DNA of 64,000 nucleotides from the IMG/VR virus record IMGVR_UViG_3300006925_000008, positions 1 to 64,000 of that record. One strand, written 5' to 3'. This document shows, in pieces, positions 979 through 47,317 of this stretch (position 1 is its first letter; the number at the start of each line of letters is the position of its first letter). The translations under genes and the position numbers were made by a program. The notes beneath the pieces are model-generated. The model was not told the DNA's origin. It made no database searches and worked only from the letters and a program-made list of their open reading frames with translations. The stretch comes from a virus.

Positions 979-1056
979 GCAGGCGGGGTCAATCAATACC
1001 TGTGGGGGTTTGGTTGTAGGCTTTGTATGTTGGCCTTCACCATCCCCGCCTGCACC
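979..1056 (+). ncRNA. Putative structured small RNA (tRNA-sized, not a canonical tRNA)
   Basis: GCAGGCGGGG (979-988) pairs perfectly with CCCCGCCTGC (1044-1053) and is followed by ACC. Two internal hairpins are possible. Starts 30 nt after the TATA-like box. Confidence 0.5.
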
Positions 1057-2155: not shown

Positions 2156-3799
2156 ATGATGCCCAACGGACAACAGCCGATATTCATAATGCCTGAAGGA
2201 ACAGACCGCACAAGAGGAAAGACGGCACAGGGTAACAATATCGCCGCCGCTAAAGCGGTTGCTGACGCAGTGAAATCAACACTAGGGCCTAAAGGAATGG
2301 ACAAGATGCTAGTCAATGGACTAGGCGATGTCCTCATTACCAATGATGGTGCTACAATCCTGCGTGAAATCAATGTCGAACATCCAGCGGCCAAGATGGT
2401 CATTGAAGTTTCAAAGACTCAAGAAGCACAGTGCTTCGACGGGACTACATCAGCCGTTGTTCTCGCAGGTGCTTTACTCAAGGAGAGCGAAGCACTGATC
2501 GAAAAGAATGTGCATCCGACTGTTATCGCATCAGGATACCGTCTCGCATCGTCTAAAGCATTGGAAACTCTTGAGAAGTGCGTGCTTGACGAAAGACAAC
2601 TGTCCAAGGTCGGTAAAGACCTAGGAGCCATTGCTAAGGTCTGTGCTGAAACAGCATTGACTGGCAAGTTTACTGATACTCACGAAGGAGTCAAGGATGT
2701 CATGTCAGGCATTGCGGGCGATGCCGTCAACAGATTGTCTGACGGGATAAACCCCCCAAACTTAGACGACATCAATGTGATATGTGCAACAGGTGGTTCA
2801 GTTGAAGACTCATACCTGATGGATGGAATTGTCCTAGAGAAGGAAAAGGCTCACAACGGAATGCCAACAGCAGTTGACGGAGCCTCGCTTGCATTGGTTG
2901 ACTTTGCTATTGAAGTTAAGAAAACTGAAGTCGATGCGAGAATCCAAATTACAAGTCCTGATCAAATGCAAGACTTCCTCGACCAAGAAGAAACAGCCCT
3001 GCGAAACATGGTGAAGAAGTTTCAGGATGCCGGAGCAAATGTGGTTCTATGTCAAAAGAAGATTGATGACCTAGCCCTGCATTACATGGCTAAGGCTGGC
3101 ATCATGGCATTACAGTCATGTCGAAAGTCCGAGTTGTCATCAGTCGCAAAGGCGACAGGTGCTGTTGTTATCAGTGACCTTGATGACTTAGTTGATGCTG
3201 ACCTTGGTTCCGCTGGACATGTGATTGAAGAACGAATTGGTGAGAACCTGATGGTTCGTATCGGTGGCGTGTCTGAAGTTGATTCAAGGGCGGTCACAGT
3301 CATCCTGCGTGGTGCAACCACCCATGTCGTTGAAGAGATTGAAAGAGCCTTCGATGATGCGCTTGGAGTAGTGTCTCTAGTCATCAACACCTCACAGATT
3401 GTCGTGGGCGGCGGATGCACATTTGCGGCAATGGCGAAGAACCTGCGTGAATATGCCAGCACTGTTGCTGGTCGAAAGCAGATGGCTATCGAAGCATATG
3501 CCAAGGCACTTGAAGAGATTCCTTCGACCATTGCTGAAAACGCAGGCATGGACCCAGTTGATTCGATCATCGCTTTGAGAGCGGCACACGCTAACAGCGC
3601 ATACACCCACGGAATCCTCGTTACAGATGAGGAGACCGACCTTCTAGTTGACAACCTCCTCCACTATGGAGTGGTTGAACCATTGAGCGTAGTCAAGCAG
3701 GCCTTGATTAGCGCAACTGAAACCTCGACCATGATTCTCCGCATCGATGATGTAATTCAAATGCGTCAAGCGGGGCCTCAAGGCTCACCTATGATGTGA
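2156..3799 (+). CDS. ths: Thermosome subunit (group II chaperonin)
   Basis: [22 protein letters not shown], (F)[25 protein letters not shown]. Confidence 0.97.
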
Positions 3800-4085: not shown

Positions 4086-4400
4086 TCACGAGCCAATGCC
4101 GTGCCACCACCTGTCCATGAACGCTTTCTCTCGGAGGTATTGCTCCTCCGTTATCACATCGCCGCAATTCATCTGTATCATTGTCTCCCCCAATGGAGCA
4201 TCGTCCTCCACCTCCGTCGAGGGTGTTGGGACTGGGACCAGTATTTTCCGACTATGATGCTGAATGATTTCAGCGGCTTCAGTTGGCTTCAGGCCACCCA
4301 CCCTCGTGATACCACCTCCTTGGATGGTTACGATCATCTCATTAAACACTAGAAGTGTTCCTTCAGGCTCATCTTGCATATCAATTATTTTTCTTGTCAT
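4086..4400 (-). CDS. Hypothetical protein (lone minus-strand gene in the early arm)
   Basis: ORF 4086..4436. Likely start is ATG 4400, after a GGAGATGA RBS. Confidence 0.55.
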   Translation of the reverse strand: MTRKIIDMQDEPEGTLLVFNEMIVTIQGGGITRVGGLKPTEAAEIIQHHSRKILVPVPTPSTEVEDDAPLGETMIQMNCGDVITEEQYLREKAFMDRWWHGIGS

Positions 4401-4645
4401 AGTTTTCATCTCCATTTGTTTTTTGTTCATGTTCATCTAAAGCGGGGATATTCTGAAAATCGGAAAAAACTCTCAACTTTCCCGAAAACTTTCCGAAGTC
4501 TCACAACCATCATCTTTACTCGATATATCTCAAGAATCGGATTATTTTGTCGAAGACGAACATTATATTGTATCATTACCTGCAACTAGGATGTTGATAT
4601 TACGATTTGAATCTCGGACCTCGTGATTGGAATCTTTGCCAATAG

Positions 4646-9731: not shown

Positions 9732-9872
9732 ATGCAAGACACTGTTTGGTGCGACGATTGCGACTGTCAAATGGTCAGCAAAGAGGAGATATTTGAATGT
9801 CCAGTATGCAAAGACTACATCAGTTGGGACGCATATTATGAACAAAAAGCCGCCCGTTGGGGGAGGATTTGA
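9732..9872 (+). CDS. 46-aa zinc-ribbon microprotein (not in ORF track)
   Basis: MQDTVWCDDCDCQMVSKEEIFECPVCKDYISW. No SD seen, consistent with a leaderless transcript. Confidence 0.7.
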   Translation: MQDTVWCDDCDCQMVSKEEIFECPVCKDYISWDAYYEQKAARWGRI

Positions 9873-17978: not shown

Positions 17979-18391
17979 CTGATGAAGACGAATGGAATGT
18001 ATGCTTGAAGAAAATACCGCATGAATATGCTGTGCTGATCAAAACCTTAGTGAAGGCTTCACCTTTACAGGATGTGTCGGCAATGAAACAGGAATTGCTT
18101 TTGAAAGCAAATACGATTATGTCCGAATTGAATGAAAGAGCAAACAAGACAAAAACATTCAAAATATCTGACTTTCAAAAGGTTGACCCTCCATACGGTG
18201 CTGGCGTGGATTTGGACAAGTATTTCAGACCAACGACACGCTCAAACGATTTCACCCCTAACAAGAACGCTCACAAAAAGAAGAAGGTCGAACCCAAAAC
18301 TAAGAAAGCACCTAAGAAGACAAGAAAGGTTCGCAAAGACAAAGGGGTCAAGCGTGGTCCTCAAAAGAATCGAAAGAAGTCAAAGAAGTGA
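17975..18391 (+). CDS. Protein with Lys/Arg-rich C-terminal tail (likely nucleic-acid binding)
   Basis: KKKKVEPKTKKAPKKTRKVRKDKGVKRGPQKNRKKSKK. Confidence 0.65.
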   Translation: MTDEDEWNVCLKKIPHEYAVLIKTLVKASPLQDVSAMKQELLLKANTIMSELNERANKTKTFKISDFQKVDPPYGAGVDLDKYFRPTTRSNDFTPNKNAHKKKKVEPKTKKAPKKTRKVRKDKGVKRGPQKNRKKSKK

Positions 18392-18397
18392 TCGTCA

Positions 18398-19498
18398 ATG
18401 GGTTCAATGTTCCGTCATTTCCCTCGTGAGGTCTGTATGAGGACTCGCAGGGTTGTAAAGAATGAGGAACAGTTACAGAAGTATGTCCTAGCCACCAATG
18501 GCAAAGACAACATAACCACCACCGTATATGGGTTCAGGGAGTTGAAGCCGAAAGGCAACCGTGGCGAGTATAATACCGCCATTGTCCCCCACTTCGTAGT
18601 TGACTTAGACAAAGACAGACTTCAGGGTATGAGCGATGCTGAAGCAGGACAGCGATGTTCTGAAGAGGCATGGCGGTTATCAGCGCACCTATTGGAAAAT
18701 GGATGGAGACATGCAGTATGGTTCACTGGCGGTGGTTTTCACATATGGGTCAACCTTGATCAGGAGTATGTCTTAGAACCTATGGAGTTGAATGACCTGC
18801 TTGTATCAGGCAGGGCGTTAATCTCAAAATGGGTCAAAGACATGGACTTACAAACACTTGACCCAGTTGTATCGTTTAGGCCTGACCGTCATATACGGAT
18901 ACCAAACTCATTCAATTTCAAACGAAACATATGGTCGATTCCCTTGTATTTAGGGGGCATCTCCGAGGGTTGGGACCATATTGTCCAAAGAGCCAAAGAA
19001 CCATCAAACATCAGCATGTGCTTAATGGGCGACAAGGGTATGCCCTTAGAAGTAATCAAGCGAGACCCAAATAATCCATTCGGCCCTCAAGGAGGAGGCT
19101 TTGCGAAGCAGGAGTTTAATGCTGAAGAGGTCGAAATAGAGATGAAGCGTATTGGGAATATCCCTATGTTGCCCTGTCTCGCTGAAGCCACATGTGAAAC
19201 TGGTGCAAATCCTCCGCACCTGCCGAGGGTGTATCTGATGATGTATCTGTTGGATTACTTCAACCGATTCGCACGACCCCCATCTAACTCAAAAATATCT
19301 ATCGATGATCGTGTCAATCAGGCACACGCATTCATCGCTCAATTGAAATGGGCTGATTACAAGCCTGATGTAACTCACAAGTATCTCAAGCACGGGGCGG
19401 AAAGGCAATACCAAACACCGACCTGCCCCACATTATATCGTGAAGGATTATGCGTGGGTAAATGTCCATTTTATGATGGCAAAGGAGTTGGAAATTAG
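18398..19498 (+). CDS. Archaeo-eukaryotic primase, PriS catalytic domain fused to PriL-type Fe-S domain
   Basis: VVDLD (DxD), FTGGGFHIW, RHIRIPNS. C-terminal LPCL...YQTPTC...LCVGKC. Confidence 0.85.
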   Translation: MGSMFRHFPREVCMRTRRVVKNEEQLQKYVLATNGKDNITTTVYGFRELKPKGNRGEYNTAIVPHFVVDLDKDRLQGMSDAEAGQRCSEEAWRLSAHLLENGWRHAVWFTGGGFHIWVNLDQEYVLEPMELNDLLVSGRALISKWVKDMDLQTLDPVVSFRPDRHIRIPNSFNFKRNIWSIPLYLGGISEGWDHIVQRAKEPSNISMCLMGDKGMPLEVIKRDPNNPFGPQGGGFAKQEFNAEEVEIEMKRIGNIPMLPCLAEATCETGANPPHLPRVYLMMYLLDYFNRFARPPSNSKISIDDRVNQAHAFIAQLKWADYKPDVTHKYLKHGAERQYQTPTCPTLYREGLCVGKCPFYDGKGVGN

Positions 19499-19636
19499 AT
19501 GACAAAAGAATGTAAATATATGCATCATAAAATATGCACAGGCGAAGCAACTGAAAGAAACAAATGGAATGTGGCAATGTGTAAATCATGCCTTAACCAT
19601 TGGACAAAATATGGGGGGAAAGCAGTTGTCAGATAA
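19499..19636 (+). CDS. 45-aa Cys-rich microprotein (not in ORF track)
   Basis: MTKECKYMHHKICTGEATERNKWNVAMCKSCLNHW. Starts immediately after the primase stop and has a GGAG RBS. Confidence 0.55.
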   Translation: MTKECKYMHHKICTGEATERNKWNVAMCKSCLNHWTKYGGKAVVR

Positions 19637-26725: not shown

Positions 26726-29700
26726 TTACTTGACCACATATGGCCTGCTCTTGGACATTCCTATCGGTAACGCCCTATATGTGTTGGCAGGGTCTATCGC
26801 CTTTCGGACTCCAATTTGACCCTTTGAGTTGATTATCGACGCACGATGTCCAATGGTCATTCTTGTATTGTTGTTACTTCTAGTGACTATCCTGTGGACA
26901 GTAATCAACTTGACACTAGATGAAAGGGATACCGTGATCGAGTCTTGACTCACTAATTCCTCATTCCCCGCCGAGTTGCCAATGCTGGCCTGTAAGTCTG
27001 AAAGAATGCCGGATATACCTTTTTCGTATTGAGCGATAACAAAATCACTTGTTCCGCTTTCATAGTTATGTGTTGTTTCAAACACTGCAAAAAGACCTTT
27101 CAGGCCGTGCGTGGATAAGTCCACGCTGATTACATCGCCGGGGTGGACTGAAGTTGCATTGACCATGCCGATAACCCTTATCATTGGCGCACCATTTTCA
27201 ATTCGTGATAGTAATGACTTTGCGAGCCTGATAGCGGTCTTTCGTGTTTTCAAGCCGGGGACTTCTTGAGTATAAGACCGGACTACATTCTCATCAGAAC
27301 CAGCACCCGCTTGTAATTTCATCCGCTCAATGTCTTTGACTTCAACCAATACGCTTTCGTTCTCGGCTATTTTGTCCCCCTTGACGGCTACTACATTCGG
27401 TGAGTCGAACATTCTGCTGACTACAATATCTCTAGCACCACTATCCGCACCTATTCGCTTTCCTGTTTCTTTGAATACCTGACTTGAATACAGTAATACG
27501 CCTGATGCTGTATTGATCAGTTGATTGCCATCTATCTGTGAGGAGTTACGAATCACCTCCAATATATTCAAACCACGAGTATTTCTTGAAATGAAATTGT
27601 TGCTATGTTGCATTATATCCGTTAAGCAGGGGTGTCCTCCAATAGCGGATGGAGACACCGATGTTTGAATCATAGTCGTGTCTTTCAAGTTGAAACCAGC
27701 GGAGGATGAAGAGGCATCATTGAGTAAAGTCATTACAGCGTCTGTTGTTCTTATTCCGATAGTAGCATACTGGCCTGCAAAGACATTGCCCACTTCAAGA
27801 CCGGAGTCGGTCAGGGTCAACCCATCCATATTCTTGAAAGTCACATATTTGCCACCAAGGTCGTCTTTTACCTTGTCAACCTTCCACCTTTGCCCTTCGC
27901 TATCGAATATGTAAGGCGGGAAAAAGTTGGAGGTTACTTCTCTTGAGTCTATCATTAGTTTGTTGCTTCTATCGGTGGCACTAATTCGACCTTGATTAGG
28001 ACCATCCTCGATATTGAAGGTTCTTTGAGTCATCATAATGAAATCGTCGGGGTTATATGTCGTCAGGCCTTTATACGACAATCCGGTTCTTGTAGCGGAT
28101 GTTCCATCGTGCTTATACAATGAGGTGGCTTGATACTCCGACAAAACAATAGCGTTGTCGATCAATGAAGGGAGAAGAGGATAGGTCTTGGTGAGGCTTA
28201 TGGTGGCTTGTCCAAGCGAACCATCGGATACGGGGTATCTCTTTGTATTAGTGCTTGCTGAAGTCCCAAATGTCTTTCTTGCATAAAACAGGGTGGTCCC
28301 ATCCCAAGTATGTCCAGCAGGCAGGTCCCCATTCGTTAGTAATGGCGATGTATTAGCAACAACGCTTATGCTCAATATATTTTTGTTCTTTGAGGTATAA
28401 TGTATTGAACCTGAATACCCCGGATACACTAGGTCTCCTGAATCAGGCAACATTGAGGCATCTCTAACAACCATGTAGTAATCAGAACCAATCGAGTAGT
28501 ATCGTTTTATTTCAACACGATTGTAATTCCTGTTTCCGTCGATATACTGCTTTCTGACAGCCTCGTTTGGCCTTTGTTGAGCCGCATGGTCTCCGCCAAT
28601 GTTTGATGATGAGTCGGAGTATCTTGTTTCACTTTGACTGATTACTTCAAAACCTCCGGGGTGTGTCGATTGGGAATAGCGTGGTTCAATTTGAGAATAT
28701 ACCTGACCATCGGGGTCAATTCTGTTTGCATCTGATTTGAAAAACTCAAGCATTGCTGTTGAAGGAATGAGGTGATACACTACATCATGATTATTTGGGT
28801 CCGGCCATTCAATGACAAACTTATCAGCCGCTGACATGATCGGTTCCGTCATACCTTGAGGCTTGTTCATATTCAATTCAAAAATACCGTATCTCTTGTC
28901 TCTATGATAGAAGTTGTCGGATGGCTGGGAGAGGTCGCCCGTATCTAGCGGCAATGGACCCAACATGTAGCCGTCCTGTCCAAGTGCGGCTCCATTTGGG
29001 GCGAAGGGATACATTTTCGATGGTCTAAATGGCCTCACTATGTAATCAACAAATGTCCTTGTGGGGTGTGATGTTGACCCTTTGGTCCCTGAAACCGCAA
29101 GAGTATTGCTCACTGTTGAAAGACTACCTTCACTTTGACGATTCAAATAGGTTTTTCTTAGAATGAATACACCACCCCAAGGCGGTAAATCAGCCCCTCC
29201 TCGGATGTTCCATATATCGTTAGCACCAGCAAATGGCGATGCCTTGATAGTGTCTGATATGGCATCAGGCTCACCCTTTGAATCATTATTATCGACTGAA
29301 AAAATTGGTTTGTCGCCGTAAAGAATGTCTGTTGTGTGAGGGGTATTGGAGACCGTGAATGGGACTCCAACCGTCCCTAATGTATTACATTTGACCGCCG
29401 TTCTCAACTTATTCATGTATGAGGGGGTGATTGGGTATTGCTGTCCAACCATTAAATCAGAATGCAAAGAAGCCGCCTTTGTTGAGGTAATCAGATAATT
29501 GCTATTCTTTTCAATTGTTTCTTCTTTAGTGGTTGTAATGATCAGACCCATCCTAGGCTCGGACCTTGATGATACCTGCCTATGGTCGGCTATTTCAGCG
29601 AGCGGTGTGGGCAATATGTCCTGTCCTGCTGTCAAAGACGAGTCATAACCCCAGCCACTAGATGGGAATGAACCAGTTGCTAAGGCATCATTGGAGTTGG

Positions 29701-32700
29701 TATGTAGCGCATTGCCTATGAGATGCCAAGCCGACCCAAAGTTTGTCGTTTGAACAGTAGCAATCGAATCTGAACCAGTCCCAGTTTCATCGAAAGACGG
29801 GATTAAGGGGTCGCCTCCTTTACTAAGAACCGGCACTTGATTCAAGGCGGTATGAGCCGCATTATATTCATCGACCCACATACCGGCGGGCATGTGAACC
29901 GGCTTGAAAACACCAGCGGATTCCAAACCAAAAGAACGACCAATCCCTAAAGGTTCATCACTAAATGAGGTAATTGGTTCGTTACTAAGCCTGCTATTGT
30001 AGGTCATAGGGCTTCCTTGAATGGTGTGTCCTGATAAAATAATGCCAATAGGAGAAGACCTTTCAACACCCCCAACATCCGTGTTACTCCACATATATCC
30101 GGGGTATGTTGCGGCTAATGCCACCGAGTCATGTTGGCCCCCATCAAAACGACCTTTACCAAAGATAGAACCCTGTGAAGTTTCAGTCTCCATAGGGTCT
30201 CCCGCTAACATGTCAACTGCATTCGATGCTGTTCTTACTCCCCAAGCACGAACAGGTAAACGCCTTCCATGATCAAAACCAACCATTGGTTGTAGTCCTA
30301 GATACAGTTGATGTTTGATATTGAAGCCTGAACCTTGTTTCACACTATATTTTCCAAGTGTAGTTTTGTAGGGGTTTATGCTGTCTCCAATTCCTTCACC
30401 ACGAGTATATCTCTCCCCGTTGTAAACTTTGGGCAACATCATGGTTCCTCTTGCTTCTCTTACGGTTGTATTACCCATCATGACCGCTGAACCGGACTCC
30501 AAAGTCCCCACGCCATGCCCGCCCGCATTCAAGCCGTTAAACCCGTATGACTGAAGCCACTGCAACGCATATATGCGCTCAAACTTCTGTGCTGGCCTCA
30601 TCTGACCATACCTGTAATTAGGATTTGGCGCACCTGCTAGTAAGTCAAAGATTGACTGTGCGGTGTATGATGTTCTATTGATTTGTTCTGTTAAATCCAA
30701 CCTTGAATGGTTTCTCAAAAGCAAACCTCTTGTTGCAGGGAATTGCATTGCTCTTGGCATACCGGCTTCACGGTATCTGAACATCATAAAGTGTTCACGG
30801 ACAGAACCCGTTATTGCCGGATGTCCGTATTCAGCGAGCCAGTGGCATAGGAACGCATCAGGTTTCGCACCAGTATTCGTGTCCGTTTCTTTCAAAATCC
30901 CCCTGTCCCATTCAGAAGCAAAATCGATAGTCATCATGTTAGTGTAATCGGGGTCGTGAACAAACAAAGGTGGGACTGTTGCTAATTCGGTGGCAACACG
31001 GGGGTTAATCCAGCCCCATTCGCTACCTCTTACAAGGTATTGAACCTCTTCATAAACGGCTGGCAGTATATTTGAAGTCGCAGGGTCATGCATGTGTTTT
31101 AGCAGTCGAGTCATAGCCGGTTCAGGCCTGCCCCCCGACAATTGATAGTCACCGATCATGAAACCATTGACCATCATTTCTGATGCGGCGGTATAACGGT
31201 TCCTGAAATTAGGAATATGGAGATTCCCATCGGTGTATTTGAATTGAATATCCGTTGCCGAGGAAATGCCTGAAACAGATAAATCGGTGACTGGCTCACC
31301 AAATGCGACCTGCTCAACAAATCCTTCAACATTAGTATGTTCCTGACCCGGTGCGATCAACCAATCAATCTGTTTACCATCTTGGTTATTGAATTGGTGT
31401 GCATATGCCGCTAACAAAACAGTCTCACGGGTTTCACGGCCATAACCAATAGTCGCTTCTTCTAATGGCAATCCATCAGCGGAGAATGAACCAGTCGCTC
31501 CCGCATATCCAGCAACTCCTTTCAATTCAATACTGTCCAAAGCAAACTTTGAGCCTGCCGCACCTGATGCTGGTGGTTTAGCCTGTTGAAATGCGTGATG
31601 TTTGTTCTCGGTTTCAGCCTCAAACATCAGCGTGTATGCTGAACCATGACTTCTATGCAATTGTCGTCTCATAGCAAAAGGAGTGCCTCTATGAGTCAAG
31701 GGGGTTACAAATGAATGCCCCTGCCTCCCAAACCTCAACCTAGCATGTGGGACCGTAAGCGGCTGGACCGCACCATTCGCTGTCATTGGCAACACGGAAC
31801 CTCTTTCAGCGTGGTCTGTAATCCGATGTGCGGAGTATATCCTAGTGGTTCCACTGGGGACCGCACCGGGCGTTATATCCGTAGCAATTCCCTGTGTTGA
31901 AACCATATCGGGGTGTAGTAAACGCTCACAGTGAAAAATCAACATGCGGTCATGTGTATCGAATTGAGATACATGCCCCTGTTCTATTGCTCCCTCCGTC
32001 GCAGTATTACGAACCCCTAACTCTCCCTCGTCCCTGCCATACAAAGTAGCAACTCTTGACATGAAAGTTGATTCCAAATGGCCGGGGTCGTGTTCTTCAG
32101 GAGGGGCAATTCCACCCATCCCCCATGTTTTGTTTGAATGTGCTTGAATGCGGTCATGAGATGACCGGACAAATATACCGCCCGGTATCTCCTCCGCCGA
32201 AGGCAATGTAAGCCTCAAGTTTGGAGTTGACTTTCCATTGCTTGATGACGGGCCAATCCGTTCCTGACCAGTTTCACTATCAAAAGACTGGTTTTCAACA
32301 ACAAAATCCCTGATTACTGTTCCAAAGGGCGAACCTCCGGGCAAAACAAGAACCGCACCTGAATCATCAACGACTTCAATGTCTTCAAAGACCATTTCTT
32401 CATTTGTGATGGTGAGTCCTTCAACTCTTTCTGTGTTGATCGGGCGTTTTACGAAAAATGGTTGGCTATATTTAGCCCCTGTTTCGCCAGCATAACCTGA
32501 AGATGCTTGGTCATTGATGAGGGTTAAACGAGCGGCATCAAGAGCGGAGTTGTCGGTTATACCTGAAAGTCTATCAAAGCCATCACCATTTTCTAATTGA
32601 TTTGAATTAGTTGCGCCTTCGTTAATCGTTTTACCTTCATAAAGCACTATGTTCTTTTGATTTACATCAGTTGAAGTCGGTTGCTTTGTCCCGTGTTCCA

Positions 32701-33985
32701 TTTTCGCAATCATCAAATGTGTTTCTCCGTTAATATCAGGGAATGTATCGGGATTTGCCGCTGTCATGCCACTGATTGCTGGTTCTGTAATTGTAAAGTC
32801 AGGAGGGGGTATAGACGGCAGTAGCGTTGAGTTTAGTCCTTCTATGCTGAACCGACAAAAACCATGATTCTGTGTATGCATCACAGGAGTCCCACCCTTT
32901 GATTCATAATTCAAAGCGGGCAACCCCATATTGCCCCCATCCAATGATTTAGCGGTCAAATGCCAAACGGGTAATGTTTGACCAAGACCTTGAACCACAG
33001 GCCCACCATTCGCACCGGCCCAATAACCGCCACTAGCGGAGGGATTTGTCGATTCCCACGAGATTACAACTGTATGCTGTGCTGGTGCGGCTTTCAGGGT
33101 CAACTCCGATATTACTCTCGTCCCCGTTCCAGTTGCACCAGTGCTTTCAATCAAAGTGGTGGTATCCATCGTGGTTCCCAAGAGTTTGTCTTTGACCCCG
33201 ATCAAATCAATAGCGGGACCTAAATCGTGGAGAGTTGCGGCGTATGCGCTGGTAAAATTGGACTCATCTTTACCCCAACCTCGGATTGGTTGCCATGAGT
33301 CATAGGTGTAGGTTCTCCCCGCCACAGGGCTGTGTGATGGCGAATGAGTTGAATCGATTGAATCACCCGGTAATGCACCGCCTGCTTGGACGGTAAACTC
33401 ACCCTTTGGAGGTAAATCAGATGGCCCCGCATTTTGAAATAAATCTCTAAAGTGGATTCTTAGCCTTGAAGTTGTAGGTGCTGAAAATGATTGTCCAATG
33501 TATTCACTTTGTCCAGCCATATTGACATATCTAGCCCTCAAATACCTAGACATTCCTCTTTCGCCAACTTGCCTGACCCGCTGGCTGTTAATTTTAGCCG
33601 CAATTACTCTAGCCGCTTCTTCAGAACCGAGGTTATAACCTCCGCCGTTTGCCAAACTATATGCGGCTAGGTCAACAATGATTACATTTGTAGTGTCACT
33701 TGTTGGCTGGGCGGGTATTGAAGCAGGGCCAGCATTTGCCATACAGGTTTTGATCAGAACCTGAAGCCCCTGCCGCCATGATTGGGTGTTTATTCCGTAT
33801 TGCCACCCCCCTGTTCCCGAAGCGGAATGTTCGTCGGTATATTCAGTATCGGGATAGGTGATGTGCATAGAGAACCACCCTGAAGCGGGGTATCCCGATG
33901 GACCGCCGAGCGGTTGAATCGATGCGGGATAGACCTGTTTACGGTCCATGAACCCCCTATCCGCCAATCCCGCCATATTTACCAC
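26726..33985 (-). CDS. Giant tail tip / baseplate hub protein (2419 aa)
   Basis: C-terminal hub-like region (PNVVAVKG...AIRLAKSLL...VHPGDVISV). Lies after the TMP and Dit-like genes. Confidence 0.7.
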   Translation of the reverse strand: MVNMAGLADRGFMDRKQVYPASIQPLGGPSGYPASGWFSMHITYPDTEYTDEHSASGTGGWQYGINTQSWRQGLQVLIKTCMANAGPASIPAQPTSDTTNVIIVDLAAYSLANGGGYNLGSEEAARVIAAKINSQRVRQVGERGMSRYLRARYVNMAGQSEYIGQSFSAPTTSRLRIHFRDLFQNAGPSDLPPKGEFTVQAGGALPGDSIDSTHSPSHSPVAGRTYTYDSWQPIRGWGKDESNFTSAYAATLHDLGPAIDLIGVKDKLLGTTMDTTTLIESTGATGTGTRVISELTLKAAPAQHTVVISWESTNPSASGGYWAGANGGPVVQGLGQTLPVWHLTAKSLDGGNMGLPALNYESKGGTPVMHTQNHGFCRFSIEGLNSTLLPSIPPPDFTITEPAISGMTAANPDTFPDINGETHLMIAKMEHGTKQPTSTDVNQKNIVLYEGKTINEGATNSNQLENGDGFDRLSGITDNSALDAARLTLINDQASSGYAGETGAKYSQPFFVKRPINTERVEGLTITNEEMVFEDIEVVDDSGAVLVLPGGSPFGTVIRDFVVENQSFDSETGQERIGPSSSNGKSTPNLRLTLPSAEEIPGGIFVRSSHDRIQAHSNKTWGMGGIAPPEEHDPGHLESTFMSRVATLYGRDEGELGVRNTATEGAIEQGHVSQFDTHDRMLIFHCERLLHPDMVSTQGIATDITPGAVPSGTTRIYSAHRITDHAERGSVLPMTANGAVQPLTVPHARLRFGRQGHSFVTPLTHRGTPFAMRRQLHRSHGSAYTLMFEAETENKHHAFQQAKPPASGAAGSKFALDSIELKGVAGYAGATGSFSADGLPLEEATIGYGRETRETVLLAAYAHQFNNQDGKQIDWLIAPGQEHTNVEGFVEQVAFGEPVTDLSVSGISSATDIQFKYTDGNLHIPNFRNRYTAASEMMVNGFMIGDYQLSGGRPEPAMTRLLKHMHDPATSNILPAVYEEVQYLVRGSEWGWINPRVATELATVPPLFVHDPDYTNMMTIDFASEWDRGILKETDTNTGAKPDAFLCHWLAEYGHPAITGSVREHFMMFRYREAGMPRAMQFPATRGLLLRNHSRLDLTEQINRTSYTAQSIFDLLAGAPNPNYRYGQMRPAQKFERIYALQWLQSYGFNGLNAGGHGVGTLESGSAVMMGNTTVREARGTMMLPKVYNGERYTRGEGIGDSINPYKTTLGKYSVKQGSGFNIKHQLYLGLQPMVGFDHGRRLPVRAWGVRTASNAVDMLAGDPMETETSQGSIFGKGRFDGGQHDSVALAATYPGYMWSNTDVGGVERSSPIGIILSGHTIQGSPMTYNSRLSNEPITSFSDEPLGIGRSFGLESAGVFKPVHMPAGMWVDEYNAAHTALNQVPVLSKGGDPLIPSFDETGTGSDSIATVQTTNFGSAWHLIGNALHTNSNDALATGSFPSSGWGYDSSLTAGQDILPTPLAEIADHRQVSSRSEPRMGLIITTTKEETIEKNSNYLITSTKAASLHSDLMVGQQYPITPSYMNKLRTAVKCNTLGTVGVPFTVSNTPHTTDILYGDKPIFSVDNNDSKGEPDAISDTIKASPFAGANDIWNIRGGADLPPWGGVFILRKTYLNRQSEGSLSTVSNTLAVSGTKGSTSHPTRTFVDYIVRPFRPSKMYPFAPNGAALGQDGYMLGPLPLDTGDLSQPSDNFYHRDKRYGIFELNMNKPQGMTEPIMSAADKFVIEWPDPNNHDVVYHLIPSTAMLEFFKSDANRIDPDGQVYSQIEPRYSQSTHPGGFEVISQSETRYSDSSSNIGGDHAAQQRPNEAVRKQYIDGNRNYNRVEIKRYYSIGSDYYMVVRDASMLPDSGDLVYPGYSGSIHYTSKNKNILSISVVANTSPLLTNGDLPAGHTWDGTTLFYARKTFGTSASTNTKRYPVSDGSLGQATISLTKTYPLLPSLIDNAIVLSEYQATSLYKHDGTSATRTGLSYKGLTTYNPDDFIMMTQRTFNIEDGPNQGRISATDRSNKLMIDSREVTSNFFPPYIFDSEGQRWKVDKVKDDLGGKYVTFKNMDGLTLTDSGLEVGNVFAGQYATIGIRTTDAVMTLLNDASSSSAGFNLKDTTMIQTSVSPSAIGGHPCLTDIMQHSNNFISRNTRGLNILEVIRNSSQIDGNQLINTASGVLLYSSQVFKETGKRIGADSGARDIVVSRMFDSPNVVAVKGDKIAENESVLVEVKDIERMKLQAGAGSDENVVRSYTQEVPGLKTRKTAIRLAKSLLSRIENGAPMIRVIGMVNATSVHPGDVISVDLSTHGLKGLFAVFETTHNYESGTSDFVIAQYEKGISGILSDLQASIGNSAGNEELVSQDSITVSLSSSVKLITVHRIVTRSNNNTRMTIGHRASIINSKGQIGVRKAIDPANTYRALPIGMSKSRPYVVK

Positions 33986-36900
33986 ACTAACCTAGATGCA
34001 TACAATCCTTGCGCTTCTAAAACCGTAAAAGCACGGTCCCACACGCCAATATGGGCCAGCGAACCATTCTTCAGGAATATCGGACCCACATCGTTATGAC
34101 CATCGGTGGCCGGAACAACTTGAGGAGTCCCATAAGTCGAGGAGCCAATAACGCTCGGAGCCTGATCGAAATAGTGAGACCCATTATGGGGCGCACCGTG
34201 TAAGGCAACGCCAACAGTAGCCATGCAATTCCCCCTGACACCTTTCGTAGGGTCAACTGTCGATGGTTGTCCGTTTTCCAATGGGACATAAGGATGGTCA
34301 GCAACTCCCTCGGATGTTGGTGAGCCTTGATGTTCATGCCGAGGGTATTTTGAGCCACCTGATGTTGTTGTGCGACTATTTGGTGCAGTGCCATCATAGA
34401 GAGCATCTTGGTCTGTCACCAAGAACGCCGATAAATCAACTCCGTCGATGATCAATTTACAAGTAGCCATTGACAAGCCTGATTGGTTGCCGTCATGAAC
34501 GAAAACACAGTGATGCCATTCATTATTTGTAATGTATAACGGCGAACCTCCGTGAGCGGCCATATATGCGGCAACATCAACATATGCGAATCTAGGTTGG
34601 CCGCTGGTTAAATCGGCATAGTGCAACGCAAAGTTGTATTCTTGATTCAAAGCCGAGGTATTTGCACCCCCCATCGAAACCCCCCAAGGTAAACCACTCG
34701 CATCAATTCCGTGAATTATTGGCCCTGACATCGCATCCGGTCCACCATTTATTGACATAAAAAAGAATGAAACTGTAAATGGCTTCGACGCTGATAGCGG
34801 CCTATTCACCTCGGATGAAATCTCGCCTCCAATTCCACTTCTAGGCCCAAGGTGAGGCAGGGATGCAAAGGCCTCTCCGACACCCGTATTGTCCCAGTCA
34901 TGACACACCAAGTATGGGTATCCGGTGGTTGGCCATGGCCCCGCACCTGTATGTCCTATGAATTGAATAGGCCTAAACTTAGTGTGGCCTGTGGGCGAAG
35001 TTGCTGTCAGCGTTGCTTTTCCTGCGGGAACGCTTAACTTTTGATAACGACCATAAATCTCCTCTTTTAACACAGTTTCATCGTTTTGAGGATATGCCGC
35101 AGTGTATTCAGTCGTGTAACTCGCCGCATAGGGCAACGGGTTCTCTTCGACCATTGAAAGGTATAACAAGCAATCGTCAATAGGTTGACCAGTGGATGGT
35201 CTTATTCGTGATTTATGATGCAACCCTATGTATGAGTTTTCATTGATCGTATCGTGGTCTTTAATCAGCGTAAAGTCGAGGACCGCTGAAGCCTTATTCG
35301 TTTCATGTAAGTTTTGCATTCCTGCGAAGCCGGTGGGACCTTTTGAGTAGTGATGCCTGTATGAGTCGCTATAATCGTTTGAAGAACCATCGCTGACATC
35401 GACCATCACCCCCGTATGCCCGCCTCCAAAGAATAGGATTCCTTTTGAGTTGACCAATGGCCAAAGTATCTCCACGCTCAATCCTAGAGCGTCTGTTTCA
35501 ACCCCTAAACTGTCTTTAATGAATAGACTGTCGTAAAACTTCTCAATTTCAACCCATGGGGTGATATTTCGCAGGAGAACGCCATTTGTAATTCTCAATC
35601 CTTTGTTGCTCAACTGACTAATTCCTTCAAACCAAAACATCCTGCCATTTACCCTGCCAATCCCTCTATTTGCCGCACTGATCTCCGAGCCAAGCGTCAG
35701 AAGGCCTTCATATGCACGATTATCAACAGCGATATAGTCTATCGGGGGGGAGTTGGCGGCATTGAAACCTGCCAATGCGTGAAGACTCCCAAACATCGTC
35801 TGTCCGGTTGTAGGCCTTCTTGGGACCACCATTTTGATGTAATCGCCTGTTATTGTCGTGTCCTCGTCATCATCACTAAGAGTCGGTTGAATCGTTGTTG
35901 TTACAATTGTTTGGCCGACCCCTGTATAAGACCGAATCTGCTCGTTATATGGTGAAAGTAAACGCCCATGAGACCCGCCGGTAAATGTAGTGATAGGAAC
36001 AAAGGTTTCACCATCAGAACCGATTGGTAAAGGTGCAGGGAATGAGTTTGCTTGATAATGAAGGCTATTTGTCGCCAATAGACCCCCTGAACCAATACAC
36101 GCAACCGGCTGATAGGGGTATGGGCTTCTGTTATCCAACCATATTGCGAAGTTACGAGCCGTAGCCCCCGGTATGGTGCTGTGAATTACAATTGTTTTGC
36201 CCTTTTCGCCGTTTCGACTTTCAACTTCTTTACCTTCAAAAGCCCTCACATAGCCCATATGAGAGCCGGTGTTACCCTCTCCAAGGTGGTCGAGGTCGAA
36301 ATGATTTGGTGCGTCAAAAGCACTGAACCCGATGTCGTTTTTAGCGGCGGGGTGAGCCGCCAAGTTGATTTTTCTGATTACTTCATCAAAGCATGAATTG
36401 AAGTCCTTCTTTGTAGTTGCTATTCCATTGAAATCTAAATCCATAGGCCTAATGTATTTTGTTGAAAGTCCATCGCTAGATTTGCCTTGAAGAGACAAAG
36501 CCGATGGTTTACAATCGACACCCAAAACCAGCGGGCGATCAGAAAAGGAATACAACGCCTCATCGCAATCATAATCAAAAGCCTCCATAGAAGGAACCCC
36601 TCTTAGCCAATACTTGTTCACATTTGTCTCGTCACGAGTAATGTCTTGGCCCCCTGTTGCTGAAACTCCCCGTCCAAACAAAAACCCAATTTTATGTGCA
36701 ATTGAATAAGCGATGTCCTCCTTTGTATGAGAATTGTGAGCCGAAACCGCTAGATTCCACGAGTCTGTTGCCAAGGAGGTCATACAAACATAACCGCCTA
36801 AGACAACAGTCATCCCCGGAGTAATGTCATTCAAACTCGCCGCCGCAATTGACGATGCCTCCGTTATACGGTCTGTTTTTGACATCGACCAAAGTGCGTC

Positions 36901-39858
36901 AATAGTAAAGGTATTCCCCACTCTTGTAACCTTGGCAACATAACCCATTTTACCTCCAAGTAGCCCCTCTCCAATTGTTATGCAATGTATGCCTGTCAAT
37001 GGCAAGTCGTTTAGTTGTAATCCTAATTCTGATAAAGAGTCCCAGCCATCCGCATTATCCACGGTAATCGTGCTAGAAGGTCCATCAACGCTTTCAACAA
37101 CCGCTGTAACGCTTGGGCGTTGGCATCTGATCAAAGGACGGTGGCGGGCCACTTCAGCCAATGCCCCATAAGTCGATACGGTCAAACCGGGCTGACCACC
37201 GTCGCCAGTGGGTAAGGAATGCTTGTAAATTGAGTCTGTAACTTCAAAAGAGGACGCATATGCGTCAATACCCCAGTCAATAGAAAAACGGCCCTCTTGA
37301 TTCTTCATTTCAGGCCGGTTCATTGCCGTCATCGTGCAATCAATGGTCATGCCAAATCCTTTTTCTGTTGGCAATGGTTGATTGTCAGCATCGGGATAAA
37401 GAATCTTCTTTGTATCGTAAAACATCGAAGGGAATAGAGGCAATTCAACCAATGCTCTTGTCGATGCATAATATGTTGAGGACTGTTTATCGTTTCTTAC
37501 AGATGCATTCCCCGCCCCAACTATCCTGTCCTTCCATCCGGGGAAAATAGGGTGTTGTATTCGTGAAGGTTTTACATCAATAGCCCCCTGACCCGGACCT
37601 CCTAATGACAATGAAACGGTTGGCGTGCCTAAATCACCAATCTCTTTGAGGGGGGTCCCCTCCGACAATTTGAAGTCCCTTTCTGTTTTCTGATCGGACA
37701 AATCCATGAGTAAAGAGCGGCCTCTAACTGTTATACCCGCACTCGCAGAAGTGCTAGTCCCCGGTTCAATTTCTTCGATTCGTCCTTTCATGAGGGTATA
37801 TTCCAAATGAACGAGGTGAGACTCGCTAGGGTTTGAAGGTTCAGTTATCAAACCGTCTAAACCGCCTCCAATCCCTCTTGAAGTCGGATGAACCAAGACT
37901 AGCAACTCTTCACTGGTAATGTCGTTATCAATGACATCAAACGCTCTATTTGATGCCGACGAGAACACACTGCTCTCTTTCTTTTTGATGTAATCTGATG
38001 ACCCCGCACTCGATGACACCCTTAGAAGGTGGTAATCCGCCGAAGTGTCAGGGTCGGGGACCACCGTGCTGGGTATTGCCTTTGGACGGCCAAATCCTCG
38101 GTATGAATATCGATTATTGACAAGACAGTCATCAAGGTTGATAAAGGGTGAAGGAGTTATTTCACCACTAGGAGCCGAAGTCAACACATTTGATTTTAGT
38201 GGCTTGTTTAGATTTTTAGCGGGTATCGATACAATACCGCCGGGTGCAATAATCTGAAAACCAATTTCAGATGCGGCTGGTGTTGCCCCTGAAATATCCC
38301 AAGGCCTCTTTAGAAGGTCAGCAAGTGGCCTGATTGCCCCTGTTGACATTTCATAGGCTTGACTTCCCGCTGGGAATGTTTTTCTGACAACTAAATGCCC
38401 TTTATGCTGACCGTCTCCTGTAATCCAAGGCTTGGCGTAATCATTTACAACAGTGTGCGGGTTTGCTATACCCGTCCCTGCAACAACTTCGCCCGTCAAG
38501 TCAATAGCGTCATAATGAACCTCGATGATTGGAGGGACACCATTTGCGACTAAATATGCGGGGGTTGTGATCAAAGCAACTCTTGTGTTTTTGTCAGGAG
38601 TCAGGTGTTTGATATAAGCCTCGTTTGTAGGGATATATTTCACTGTTTCATTTGGGCCAATGTAATTCCCTGTTTTATGCTCTCTAAATTGAGCGTTATG
38701 GTTTATGTCTAATGACTTTAACATGAAAGGCTTGATGTCATCAACTGCAATAGCAATGATGTCATCACAGGTGGATGAGGATAAATTGTAACCCCCCGCT
38801 CCAACTTGTTGAAACGCTCCTGATGAGTATTCACTAATTACCCTGTTATATGGAGAGGCGGGGGCTAGACCCATAGTGCCAACAACAGATGAAGACTTAT
38901 TCATAACACGATTTACTTCACCTTGATACACCATTTCAGTTACTTTCACCATATCGCTTTCGTTTATGATGCTGTTAAGAGAGAGGTCATCTGATTCATA
39001 AGTGAAAGTGTCCGATATTCCTTGAACCGTCTTTTTCACATATTGAGCATCAGGCTGGGGCAATGATTTGAGATAAAACTCACCTTCAACAATTGAATAT
39101 GATGTTACTCCCCCCATCGCCCCATAGGTCAATTCCGAATCGGGTTCGATCAGGACTCCCGTGTCGTCGGTTACTTTCATACCAAGGCTTGCGGGCGCAC
39201 TCGGAGCATAGGGTGGCGGTGAAGGTTCTTCGGGTGGGGGTTCAGGGGGGTCAAACGGTTCTTCGGGGTCAGGGCCAATAGGGGGTGTTACAGGTGTGGA
39301 TGTAGGTGGTTCTTCGGGTTCTTCAGGTGGTTCAGGTGGTTCAGGTGGTCCTTCGCCCCCCTCAAAATTGTAAGTGCCTGTCATTAACGCCGCCATTATA
39401 GCATCAGGGTCCAGCATAAAGAGAGATTCAGCATTAGCAATGTTCCAATTTGATTTATCTTGGGGGTTCCCTCCAACTGAAGGAACGGCATGTGAAAGGT
39501 ATGTTTTGTCAGGCGAGGTGGAGTCGGATGAATACCGAACCTCCAACTCCTCTATTGCGAATGCGCTGTTGCCAATTTGTTCTGAAATCATTCCCGCCGC
39601 TTCTGCGGGGGGGACTCCAAGACCTGATTCTTCATCGACCATGTAAGCGGCTAAACTGCCCAAACAATGCCCTAGATGTGTGAGGTCAGTGCTGACTATA
39701 TCTCTAAAAACATCATCATTCAATTCCGCCCAGTTGACCGGCAACTGATGAGGGGCCTCGGCTGACATGAAAATACGACTGAAGTATTCCGTGAATATAG
39801 TAGGGAACAGCGTAGGTTCAAGTTGTTGGAGTTGTTGTTTTGTAAAAGCAAACGCCAT
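33979..39858 (-). CDS. Giant tail protein (1959 aa) with Pro-rich linker and C-terminal LamG-like domain
   Basis: ITVRGRSLLMDL hub-like motif. NNEWHHCVFVHDG...KLIIDGV...IGVWDRAF (LamG). Confidence 0.7.
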   Translation of the reverse strand: MAFAFTKQQLQQLEPTLFPTIFTEYFSRIFMSAEAPHQLPVNWAELNDDVFRDIVSTDLTHLGHCLGSLAAYMVDEESGLGVPPAEAAGMISEQIGNSAFAIEELEVRYSSDSTSPDKTYLSHAVPSVGGNPQDKSNWNIANAESLFMLDPDAIMAALMTGTYNFEGGEGPPEPPEPPEEPEEPPTSTPVTPPIGPDPEEPFDPPEPPPEEPSPPPYAPSAPASLGMKVTDDTGVLIEPDSELTYGAMGGVTSYSIVEGEFYLKSLPQPDAQYVKKTVQGISDTFTYESDDLSLNSIINESDMVKVTEMVYQGEVNRVMNKSSSVVGTMGLAPASPYNRVISEYSSGAFQQVGAGGYNLSSSTCDDIIAIAVDDIKPFMLKSLDINHNAQFREHKTGNYIGPNETVKYIPTNEAYIKHLTPDKNTRVALITTPAYLVANGVPPIIEVHYDAIDLTGEVVAGTGIANPHTVVNDYAKPWITGDGQHKGHLVVRKTFPAGSQAYEMSTGAIRPLADLLKRPWDISGATPAASEIGFQIIAPGGIVSIPAKNLNKPLKSNVLTSAPSGEITPSPFINLDDCLVNNRYSYRGFGRPKAIPSTVVPDPDTSADYHLLRVSSSAGSSDYIKKKESSVFSSASNRAFDVIDNDITSEELLVLVHPTSRGIGGGLDGLITEPSNPSESHLVHLEYTLMKGRIEEIEPGTSTSASAGITVRGRSLLMDLSDQKTERDFKLSEGTPLKEIGDLGTPTVSLSLGGPGQGAIDVKPSRIQHPIFPGWKDRIVGAGNASVRNDKQSSTYYASTRALVELPLFPSMFYDTKKILYPDADNQPLPTEKGFGMTIDCTMTAMNRPEMKNQEGRFSIDWGIDAYASSFEVTDSIYKHSLPTGDGGQPGLTVSTYGALAEVARHRPLIRCQRPSVTAVVESVDGPSSTITVDNADGWDSLSELGLQLNDLPLTGIHCITIGEGLLGGKMGYVAKVTRVGNTFTIDALWSMSKTDRITEASSIAAASLNDITPGMTVVLGGYVCMTSLATDSWNLAVSAHNSHTKEDIAYSIAHKIGFLFGRGVSATGGQDITRDETNVNKYWLRGVPSMEAFDYDCDEALYSFSDRPLVLGVDCKPSALSLQGKSSDGLSTKYIRPMDLDFNGIATTKKDFNSCFDEVIRKINLAAHPAAKNDIGFSAFDAPNHFDLDHLGEGNTGSHMGYVRAFEGKEVESRNGEKGKTIVIHSTIPGATARNFAIWLDNRSPYPYQPVACIGSGGLLATNSLHYQANSFPAPLPIGSDGETFVPITTFTGGSHGRLLSPYNEQIRSYTGVGQTIVTTTIQPTLSDDDEDTTITGDYIKMVVPRRPTTGQTMFGSLHALAGFNAANSPPIDYIAVDNRAYEGLLTLGSEISAANRGIGRVNGRMFWFEGISQLSNKGLRITNGVLLRNITPWVEIEKFYDSLFIKDSLGVETDALGLSVEILWPLVNSKGILFFGGGHTGVMVDVSDGSSNDYSDSYRHHYSKGPTGFAGMQNLHETNKASAVLDFTLIKDHDTINENSYIGLHHKSRIRPSTGQPIDDCLLYLSMVEENPLPYAASYTTEYTAAYPQNDETVLKEEIYGRYQKLSVPAGKATLTATSPTGHTKFRPIQFIGHTGAGPWPTTGYPYLVCHDWDNTGVGEAFASLPHLGPRSGIGGEISSEVNRPLSASKPFTVSFFFMSINGGPDAMSGPIIHGIDASGLPWGVSMGGANTSALNQEYNFALHYADLTSGQPRFAYVDVAAYMAAHGGSPLYITNNEWHHCVFVHDGNQSGLSMATCKLIIDGVDLSAFLVTDQDALYDGTAPNSRTTTSGGSKYPRHEHQGSPTSEGVADHPYVPLENGQPSTVDPTKGVRGNCMATVGVALHGAPHNGSHYFDQAPSVIGSSTYGTPQVVPATDGHNDVGPIFLKNGSLAHIGVWDRAFTVLEAQGLYASRLVW
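39190..39352 (-). repeat. Pro/Glu-rich low-complexity coding repeat (PPE)n
   Basis: ggttcaggt repeats encode GPPEPPEPPEEPEEPP...PPEPPPEEPSPPP. Confidence 0.8.
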
Positions 39859-46680: not shown

Positions 46681-47317
46681 CTGAATAGGTCAGTTGTCGG
46701 TTGCGGGGCGGGGGGAGTTGTCCTTGTGGCTGTGGCCTCTCTAACTCCATTCCCTTATCAGCAAAACGGTCATAGAACATGGGATGAATCTCATCCGCTC
46801 GTTGTCCGGGGTTTACCAGCCATTCAGGGATGCCCTCCATGGGTGACTCTCCCGTTCCTTCTGTTCTAATACTGCTCTCTCCTTCTGCGTGTTCAGGGTT
46901 CTTCACCGTGTCTTTAGTTGAAACACGCATTTCACTGTTTTTGTCAGGTAAGGCATAACCCTGCTTCCTGTCATAATTCGGATGAGACGGGTCTAAAGCA
47001 CCTCTTTCGTAGTGTTCGGGTCGGGGGGCCATTACTTCTGAATCTCCGGGCCTTCTTTTTCTCCGGTCATATAGGTCGGGGTTTCCTGATGTAGCACTTA
47101 GCATATTTGCTCTTTCGTCCCTCAAGTTGCTCCTCACTTTTCGCTCATATTCCGTCACTACTGGCTGATCAATTTGGTCATCAAGATGTTCTAAATCTCG
47201 CCTCAAATTATCAGCGTGCGCTTGATGACCATGCGGTGCATATGAGCCGTAAAACTTCATCAGACTCCATGCGGAATCTAGGGCTTGCTTGTGAATCATG
47301 TCTTCTGTTTTAGGCAT
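46617..47317 (-). repeat. 55-bp imperfect direct repeat (46617-46671 and 47263-47317)
   Basis: 48/55 identical. 6 of the 7 differences leave the peptide unchanged. Confidence 0.9.
46673..47317 (-). CDS. Putative virion-internal protein with MPKTExMIHKQALDSAWS leader
   Basis: Start placed at ATG 47317 by the repeat. Hydrophilic, probably disordered body. Confidence 0.65.
   Translation of the reverse strand: MPKTEDMIHKQALDSAWSLMKFYGSYAPHGHQAHADNLRRDLEHLDDQIDQPVVTEYERKVRSNLRDERANMLSATSGNPDLYDRRKRRPGDSEVMAPRPEHYERGALDPSHPNYDRKQGYALPDKNSEMRVSTKDTVKNPEHAEGESSIRTEGTGESPMEGIPEWLVNPGQRADEIHPMFYDRFADKGMELERPQPQGQLPPPRNRQLTYSGE

Follow-up and report, generated by a model that had tools for sequence, protein, structure and literature searches.

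The window analysed in this study, 64,000 nucleotides in length, constitutes the first 64 kb of a 97-kb viral record. It encodes a thermosome-type chaperonin at positions 2156-3796 (Pfam Cpn60_TCP1, E 2.8e-154), and thermosome-bearing viruses of matching size are described from marine metagenomes as the magroviruses of groups A and D (PMC5434244). The stretch occurs in 24 sequencing runs, all of them from marine or seawater samples where labelled. The element under study, placed on the plus strand together with all the genes and signals described here with it, is found within a gap of 134 nt that extends from the TGA stop (943-945) of an upstream ORF to the start codon ATG1080 of the next gene. 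The ORF ending at 945 represents the C-terminus of a giant gene, which in the complete relative G001 is a single ORF of 10.6 kb (27251-37867) coding for ~3,500 amino acids. When used as query, the C-terminus of the giant protein matched only G001 in IMG/VR and nothing in the GTDB genomes, and the last 800 amino acids gave no Pfam match in L035 or L036, the two relatives tested. The giant protein features a strongly conserved block rich in Cys and His (FxHHDCMVCGKPHIKSGLVPVM ... MWVGQDCAKKFMGF).

Two genes follow downstream of the gap. The first one (1080-1562; 160 amino acids) has a C-terminal zinc ribbon of the Top1 type (Pfam PF01396), and the second one (1559-2116) codes for a pyrimidine-dimer DNA glycosylase resembling DenV, based on a match to PF03013 (E 3.5e-4) that falls under the curated cut-off. 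The true start of the zinc-ribbon protein is at ATG1080 (MAEYV), the methionine being common to 15 of 15 aligned homologues and the first residue in 13 of them. Its homologues P0002-P0006 show 69-74% identity. A coding leader or an upstream small ORF as explanation for the gap was rejected: the called N-terminal extensions are not conserved, and the reading frames differ between the window and L035. The leader also contains, at 1063-1074, shortly ahead of the start region, a three-codon mini-ORF (AUG AAG AGA UGA) that the relatives do not conserve. The zinc-ribbon gene as such, with GSDAIRVVLVDP...RVHRV as its conserved core, occurs widely among viral contigs of marine origin. It is found there in at least five different upstream contexts (L001/L011 compared to L002, L013, L014 and L039-L054) and is usually coupled translationally to the preceding gene, behind a Shine-Dalgarno sequence of the GGAGG type.

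The stop codon of the giant gene overlaps a promoter-like motif, GAGCCTTGATA (944-958), that contains the TATA-like sequence TTGATATA at 949-956. The pattern GAGCCTTGAWA is present in exactly three copies in the 97-kb genome (944, 2121 and 9697), all of them on the plus strand and at gene boundaries, and the same three copies are found in the complete relative G001. In the other magrovirus groups (four records, G003-G006) the motif (G)TGAGCCTTGAWA was absent. Counted from the first G of the motif, position +35 coincides with G979, with the A of ATG2156 and with the A of ATG9732, so that the equal spacing claimed in the initial annotation for G979 and the two start codons is exact. The thermosome promoter (GTGAGCCTTGAAA-N24-ATG) has the ATG at +35 in five lineages (window, L005, L006, L035 and L036), among which the 24-nt spacer varies in sequence. 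At the element, the distance from motif to stem in five variants is 35, 35, 35, 37 and 35 nt. The motif is identical in the window, L011 and L035 (16/16), and the adjacent spacer (959-978), conserved in length and not in sequence, shows 75% identity to L011 and 50% to L035. Going by the established geometry of archaeal promoters, motif and spacing resemble a TATA-type promoter feeding leaderless mRNAs, and the model would imply such mRNAs for the thermosome gene and the gene at 9732. Judged from promoter spacing alone, the transcription start in the gap should be at or within 1-2 nt of G979. If the promoter model holds, the first nucleotide of the RNA made from this promoter at 944 is also the first base of a stem.

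This stem (P1) comprises 10 perfect, GC-rich base pairs between GCAGGCGGGG (979-988), with G979 predicted to be the base at which the transcript starts, and CCCCGCCTGC (1044-1053), which is exactly complementary to it in reverse, and it is followed by an ACC tail (1054-1056). As predicted by RNAfold, P1 encloses two hairpins: P2 (990-1016), which pairs CAAUCAA with UUGGUUG (990-996/1010-1016) and carries on top an apical CCU...GGG helix, in which the conserved G-run (1004-1008) takes part; and P3 (1018-1036), which pairs AGGCU with GGCCU (1018-1022/1032-1036) around a 9-nt loop. The strand returns to P1 through the junction UCACCAU (1037-1043), whose CACC is common to the window, L035 and L036. 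The terminal stem with its ACC end, as initially annotated, is thus borne out in the sequence, and the arrangement of the two hairpins in a three-way junction, likewise suggested there, was reproduced by RNAfold. The minimum free energy (MFE) of the element is -37.9 kcal/mol (z = -3.79), none of 200 dinucleotide shuffles folding as well, and the minus strand folds less well (-32.6). Regarding the stem in isolation, five perfect inverted repeats of at least 10 bp within 90 nt exist in the 64-kb window and ~5 are expected by chance (64000 x 90 / 4^10). The 10-bp stem alone is therefore at chance level, and the case for the element rests on its placement together with its conservation in relatives. 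The four other perfect inverted repeats of 10-11 bp are located at 47175-47231, 19468-19533, 18098-18181 and 2429-2497, with their arms 35-64 nt apart.

The rest of the leader (1057-1079) is unstructured and features a purine-rich, Shine-Dalgarno-like sequence, GAGAUGAU, at 1068-1075, ahead of the start codon. The relatives have similar purine-rich motifs. In MFE folds of the whole leader, the element folds alone in each of five variants, and the segment 1057-1079 shows weak pairing in L035 and L036 and none in the window, L011 and L038. Sequestration of the Shine-Dalgarno sequence by the element was considered and rejected, for none was seen in these folds; given that the ribosome-binding site is free in all variants, a simple translational block is unlikely. 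Transcription termination in archaea relies on oligo-T, not on hairpins. The hairpin is not followed by a T-run, its tail being ACCTTGAGA and a T4 occurring in L036 only, and the element was dismissed as terminator on that account. The first two sense-strand runs of at least five T after 979 are encountered at 4388-4424 (4388-4392 and 4419-4424), and the unit starting at 979 probably ends at these oligo-T runs near 4.4 kb. With no such run until 4388, the element looks like the beginning of a leader on an mRNA that spans several genes. When positions 1-23000 were compared to 23000-97368 of G000, the plus strand of 1-23000 contained 3 runs of T5+ as opposed to 26 runs of A5+; strong avoidance of T5+ in sense orientation within the plus-strand gene block fits with oligo-T as the terminator signal. 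The one RNA run with a match to the region, X23, which consists of contigs only, corresponds to 736-898, outside the element.

Relatives were found by searching IMG/VR and metagenomes with the zinc-ribbon protein and by scanning for the promoter motif. The element is present in four deep lineages: the window together with L011 (equal to G001; 96% identity of the zinc-ribbon protein), L035 (66%), L036/L037 (68%) and L038 (66%). Each lineage exhibits a GC-rich stem of 10-15 bp that starts 35-37 nt after the motif, just past the stop of the giant gene, and in all four the promoter overlaps the stop of this same upstream gene (TGAGCCTTGATA; TGAGCATTGATA in L038), with TGAGCC forming the overlap in the window, L011, L035 and L036 and the equivalent TGAGCA in L038. 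Over the variants, the stem measures 10, 11-12, 13, 13 and 14-15 bp, and its arms are 16 to 55 nt apart. L035 has the same three helices as the window and folds alike on its own. The stem of L036 consists of 13 bp with one C-A mismatch and a 24-nt loop, whereas that of L038 includes three G-U pairs in its 14-15 bp and has a small helix at its apex. Both lineages form a plain hairpin (49-53 nt) that has neither P3 nor a separate P2 and keeps the apical C/U...GGGG part. In all four lineages the stem ends with GC and is followed by NCC (ACC in three of them, CCC in L038), so that only the CC is invariant.

In L038, two small ORFs are inserted between the element and the zinc-ribbon gene, and L036 is devoid of DenV; from these two cases it follows that the element stays linked to the promoter where the giant gene ends, and not to any downstream gene. 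The gene content just downstream of the element varies in L038, where a 13-codon ORF, coupled via an overlapping TGATG, precedes the two extra small ORFs, and where one extra small ORF, within 267-866, has zinc-finger-like motifs (CxxC...CxC). In distant relatives (L002, L013, L014 and L039-L054) the zinc-ribbon gene is fused behind another gene, with no intergenic gap. A covariance model of the element found it once per genome in the window, G000, G001, L035 and 30 related loci, and not at all in G002 and G003. In searches cast more widely, the zinc-ribbon alignment matched only bacterial zinc-ribbon domains in the GTDB genomes, and the phage GenBank collection yielded one distant unannotated protein match only. 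Two DNA-pattern scans of IMG/VR returned 45 and 35 stretches, approximately the chance number. Among the stretches of the first scan no stem exceeded 5 bp, and in the second none reached 9 bp except in the known relatives.

Comparison of the lineages provides the evidence for conservation of the fold. In a structural alignment of the window, L011 and L035, fitted to the covariance model, 9 of 21 base pairs change on both sides and 98.4% of the cells pair; controls in which the 3' partner was slid by 1-3 columns show 0-2 double-changed pairs and 25-57% pairing. The same three helices were predicted by RNAalifold, and a covariance model built from the window and L011 alone found L035 (25.8 bits, E 0.005) with all three helices aligned. 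The 5' arms of P1 are only 60-70% identical across variants. Considering the outer 10 pairs of P1 in five variants, 9-10 of 10 form within a lineage and 6-9 of 10 when the arms are combined across lineages. In P2, 5 of 7 pairs change on both sides between the window and L035, and the closing pair of P3 is A-U in the window, U-A in L011 and G-U in L035.

At short distance, the element is 94.9% identical to that of L011, compared to 69.5-78.1% at flanking third codon positions and 75% in the spacer. The four differences involve a compensatory A-U/U-A swap in P3, one loop insertion and one junction change. T1043 is replaced by A in L011 and by G in the variant contig of run X12, and either base gives an 11th pair of P1 with U989. 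The variant contig, a single one of low depth from an unrelated 2025 run, differs in the element only at 1024 (loop) and 1043 (junction). At larger distance, the element is 56% identical to that of L035, no better than the spacer (50%), and the fold is kept, which argues for selection acting on the structure. As tallied from the pair lists of all variants on the plus strand, there are ~8 G-U pairs compared to one C-A, which points to a plus-strand RNA and not to DNA. The homologous intergenic regions of the four lineages available keep the fold with compensatory changes, in support of the structured RNA that was initially annotated.

Turning to the identity of this RNA, ARAGORN found 0 tRNA genes in the whole window. 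Rfam gave no match at the gathering thresholds and, at E<=10 on 930-1110, five noise matches of which none was to tRNA. A canonical tRNA is ruled out by these two results and by the lack of a T-loop (GTTCRA), D-loop (GG) and anticodon arm, which was noted in the initial annotation and confirmed by inspection of the sequence. Of the identities proposed there, that of a degenerate tRNA fails on the empty ARAGORN and Rfam searches and on the two lineages that form a plain hairpin without inner arms. That of an acceptor-stem mimic to be CCA-tailed is not supported and retains a low probability: the CC after the stem is invariant, but the A is not, the stem varies from 10 to 15 bp, and a free 3' end at this place is hypothetical. 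A structured leader of the zinc-ribbon/DenV operon, the third proposal, fits best with the conserved fold, the predicted start and the absence of a terminator after the element. The RNA was rightly called undescribed, considering that Rfam has no match and that the 2017 paper founding the magroviruses is silent on it, the words promoter, TATA and non-coding not being used there (PMC5434244). A miniature transposon or repeat cassette (MITE, PeSL-like) was rejected because the element is single-copy in G000 and G001. A replication origin is unlikely, for the GC-skew minimum and strand switch of G001 are at ~25-27 kb and the element is at 37.9 kb, ~10 kb away. The element makes up a small RNA family that is new, though its kind is familiar: a promoter-proximal 5' stem-loop leader, here in an uncultured clade of archaeal viruses.

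Placement, fold and conservation considered together, the element is most likely an RNA structure that is conserved, folds on its own and forms the very 5' end of a viral transcript, the start of which is predicted from promoter spacing. As regards its function, the reading that we tentatively prefer, at not quite an even chance, is by analogy that of a cis-acting 5' stem-loop for protection of the 5' end or for tuning the expression of a leadered mRNA. The promoter TGAGCCTTGATA on the stop of the giant gene would fire and transcription would begin at around G979. The first 75-78 nt of the nascent RNA would fold into the 10-bp GC-rich terminal stem and, in the window lineage, the two inner hairpins, in place of which the other lineages would form a single long hairpin. 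Without a terminator, the RNA would continue via ~25 unpaired nt with the Shine-Dalgarno-like motif into the zinc-ribbon gene and the DenV-like gene, and probably on to the oligo-T near 4.4 kb. The base-paired 5' terminus could shield the mRNA from 5'-end-dependent decay and set the level of expression. The two sister promoters, by contrast, would give rise to leaderless mRNAs starting at the ATG. The host group we presume to be the Poseidoniales, related to the Thermoplasmatales. In bacteria and phages, 5'-terminal pairing and stem-loops are known to stabilise mRNAs (ompA, aprE, STAB-SD; among the references of PMC3997798). Of relevance to archaea, the 5'-3' exoribonuclease aRNase J is present in Euryarchaeota and reported missing from Thermoplasmatales (PMC7144898), making the host pathway of 5' decay uncertain for the stabiliser reading. 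Additionally, a simple stabiliser leaves the invariant GC...GC-N-CC ends and the conserved loop G-run unexplained.

The spacing can equally be read from the giant gene, for it puts the hairpin ~36 nt after the upstream stop and is so compatible with a 3' role on the giant mRNA; because the promoter overlaps this stop in every lineage, the 5' and 3' roles are inseparable by spacing. As a 3'-terminal stem-loop of the giant gene's mRNA, which we deem unlikely, the element would block 3'-5' exonucleases or mark a point of processing or termination. It does always come after the stop of the giant ORF, whatever gene is next (the ORFs of L038, L036 without DenV), and three variants allow for 1-2 further pairs with bases just upstream of +35, suggestive of a slightly earlier start or of function in read-through RNA. 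The role is at odds with the absence of a T-run after the element, given that archaeal terminators are oligo-T, and with the promoter between stop codon and hairpin. The start of the stem, moreover, coincides to the nucleotide with +35, where the sister promoters have their ATG, and such precision is unneeded for a 3' stabiliser. Similarly improbable is a protein- or polymerase-binding RNA operator of the replication-gene transcript, to be used in translational or transcriptional autoregulation or, like the put RNA of HK022, in modifying the elongating polymerase. The operator is a candidate with no assigned partner and no Rfam match, and its inner architecture is not conserved (L036 and L038 being plain hairpins), even though its conserved unpaired and apical motifs (G-run, CACC, NCC tail) exceed the needs of a passive hairpin. 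The element heads a multi-gene unit and is, as an operator might be, promoter-proximal, cis-encoded and ~75 nt in size, with stacked helices in the window lineage; antitermination, however, seems unneeded where sense T-runs are already avoided.

Alternatively, a stable small RNA, shaped as a hairpin or three-way junction, could be cut from the 5' end of the transcript to act as mimic of a tRNA acceptor/T-arm minihelix, as CCA-completed decoy, as primer or as enzyme ligand, all of which we regard as decidedly doubtful. We consider it highly improbable that the first 75-80 nt are released such that 5'-GC...GC-N-CC mimics the top half of tRNA and is completed by the host CCA-adding enzyme, the product being a decoy or ligand for tRNA-end enzymes. 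With the stem starting GC at the predicted +1, 5' processing would be unneeded; the GC and NCC end is retained in all four lineages despite the changed stem sequence; the stem lengths of 10-15 bp bracket the 12-bp stack of acceptor plus T-arm; and magroviruses of group B have real tRNA genes (PMC5434244). Yet ARAGORN detected nothing and Rfam no tRNA or tRNA-like match even at E<=10, T-loop and D-loop are absent, and L036 and L038 do without the inner arms. The base in the place of a discriminator is not always A, and stems of variable length do not resemble a measured minihelix; the tail is not followed by oligo-T or another known 3'-end signal, and its A (and C) can pair upstream of the stem in L035 and L011. 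A DNA-level element, finally, be it a cruciform, replication origin, recombination site, operator palindrome or miniature transposon, is extremely unlikely. The perfect inverted repeat is intergenic and adjoins replication genes, but every diverged variant has G-U pairs, which in DNA are mismatches. A distance between the arms of anywhere from 16 to 55 nt does not suit a protein operator, nor does the single copy suit a mobile repeat; in G001, the skew minimum and strand switch are positioned ~10 kb upstream.

Our study has significance in that the magroviruses, whose hosts are marine group II archaea, are abundant but uncultured, and that we found no report on magrovirus gene expression in the literature. 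The locus represents a compact and testable model in which one lineage-specific type of promoter would serve leaderless mRNAs at two genes and a hairpin-capped, leadered mRNA at a third. Should the hairpin govern stability or translation, it would represent a kind of cis-regulatory RNA for which no report was found in archaeal viruses, and it would offer a way to study how the host group degrades mRNA in a 5'-end-dependent manner. If the release of a tRNA-like end were true, there would be a new viral mimic, and a class of RNA not described for archaeal viruses. The element can furthermore serve in this clade as a landmark that separates the giant gene from the replication module.

There exist likenesses to several known systems, each with its own distinctions. 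The put RNAs of phage HK022 are structured, promoter-proximal antitermination RNAs of ~70 nt that act in cis from the start of a long transcription unit. The element shares with them the position of a structured RNA just after the promoter, heading a long unit; it differs in that the lineages do not all share its two-hairpin core, that an archaeal-type polymerase is involved and that polymerase binding is purely putative. With the PeSL cassettes of T4-type phages it has in common the strong viral promoter and GC-rich stem-loop at a gene boundary, as well as the variation of neighbouring gene content between relatives (PMC2839356). PeSLs, however, are multi-copy, and their stem-loops are terminators and mediate recombination (PMC2839356), whereas the element is single-copy, situated downstream of its promoter and without a T-run. 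Similarity to tRNA and minihelices consists in the terminal pairs G1-C and C2-G, a single base and then CC, and a size of ~76-78 nt in the window lineage, with the 5' end presumably coming directly from initiation. Unlike tRNA, the element has no cloverleaf, T-loop, D-loop or anticodon arm, its stem is 10-15 bp and not 7 (or 12 when stacked), its tail is embedded in a longer RNA, and two lineages are plain hairpins of 49-53 nt. The 5' stabilisers of bacterial and phage mRNAs (ompA, aprE, cryIIIA STAB-SD; as referenced in PMC3997798) are, likewise, stable hairpins at or near the 5' end. The element is set apart from them by its archaeal host, by the absence of sequence homology, and by its conserved GC...GC-NCC ends and the three-way junction of two lineages. 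Like the 5' stabilisers, it is an independent module that is placed upstream of a leadered coding region and does not occlude the ribosome-binding site; its loop G-run resembles a Shine-Dalgarno sequence, as STAB-SD does; and its stem, beginning at +35 to +37 of the motif, would be located at the 5' terminus of the RNA or within a few nt of it, as in a 5'-terminal stabiliser, if transcription starts where the promoter predicts.
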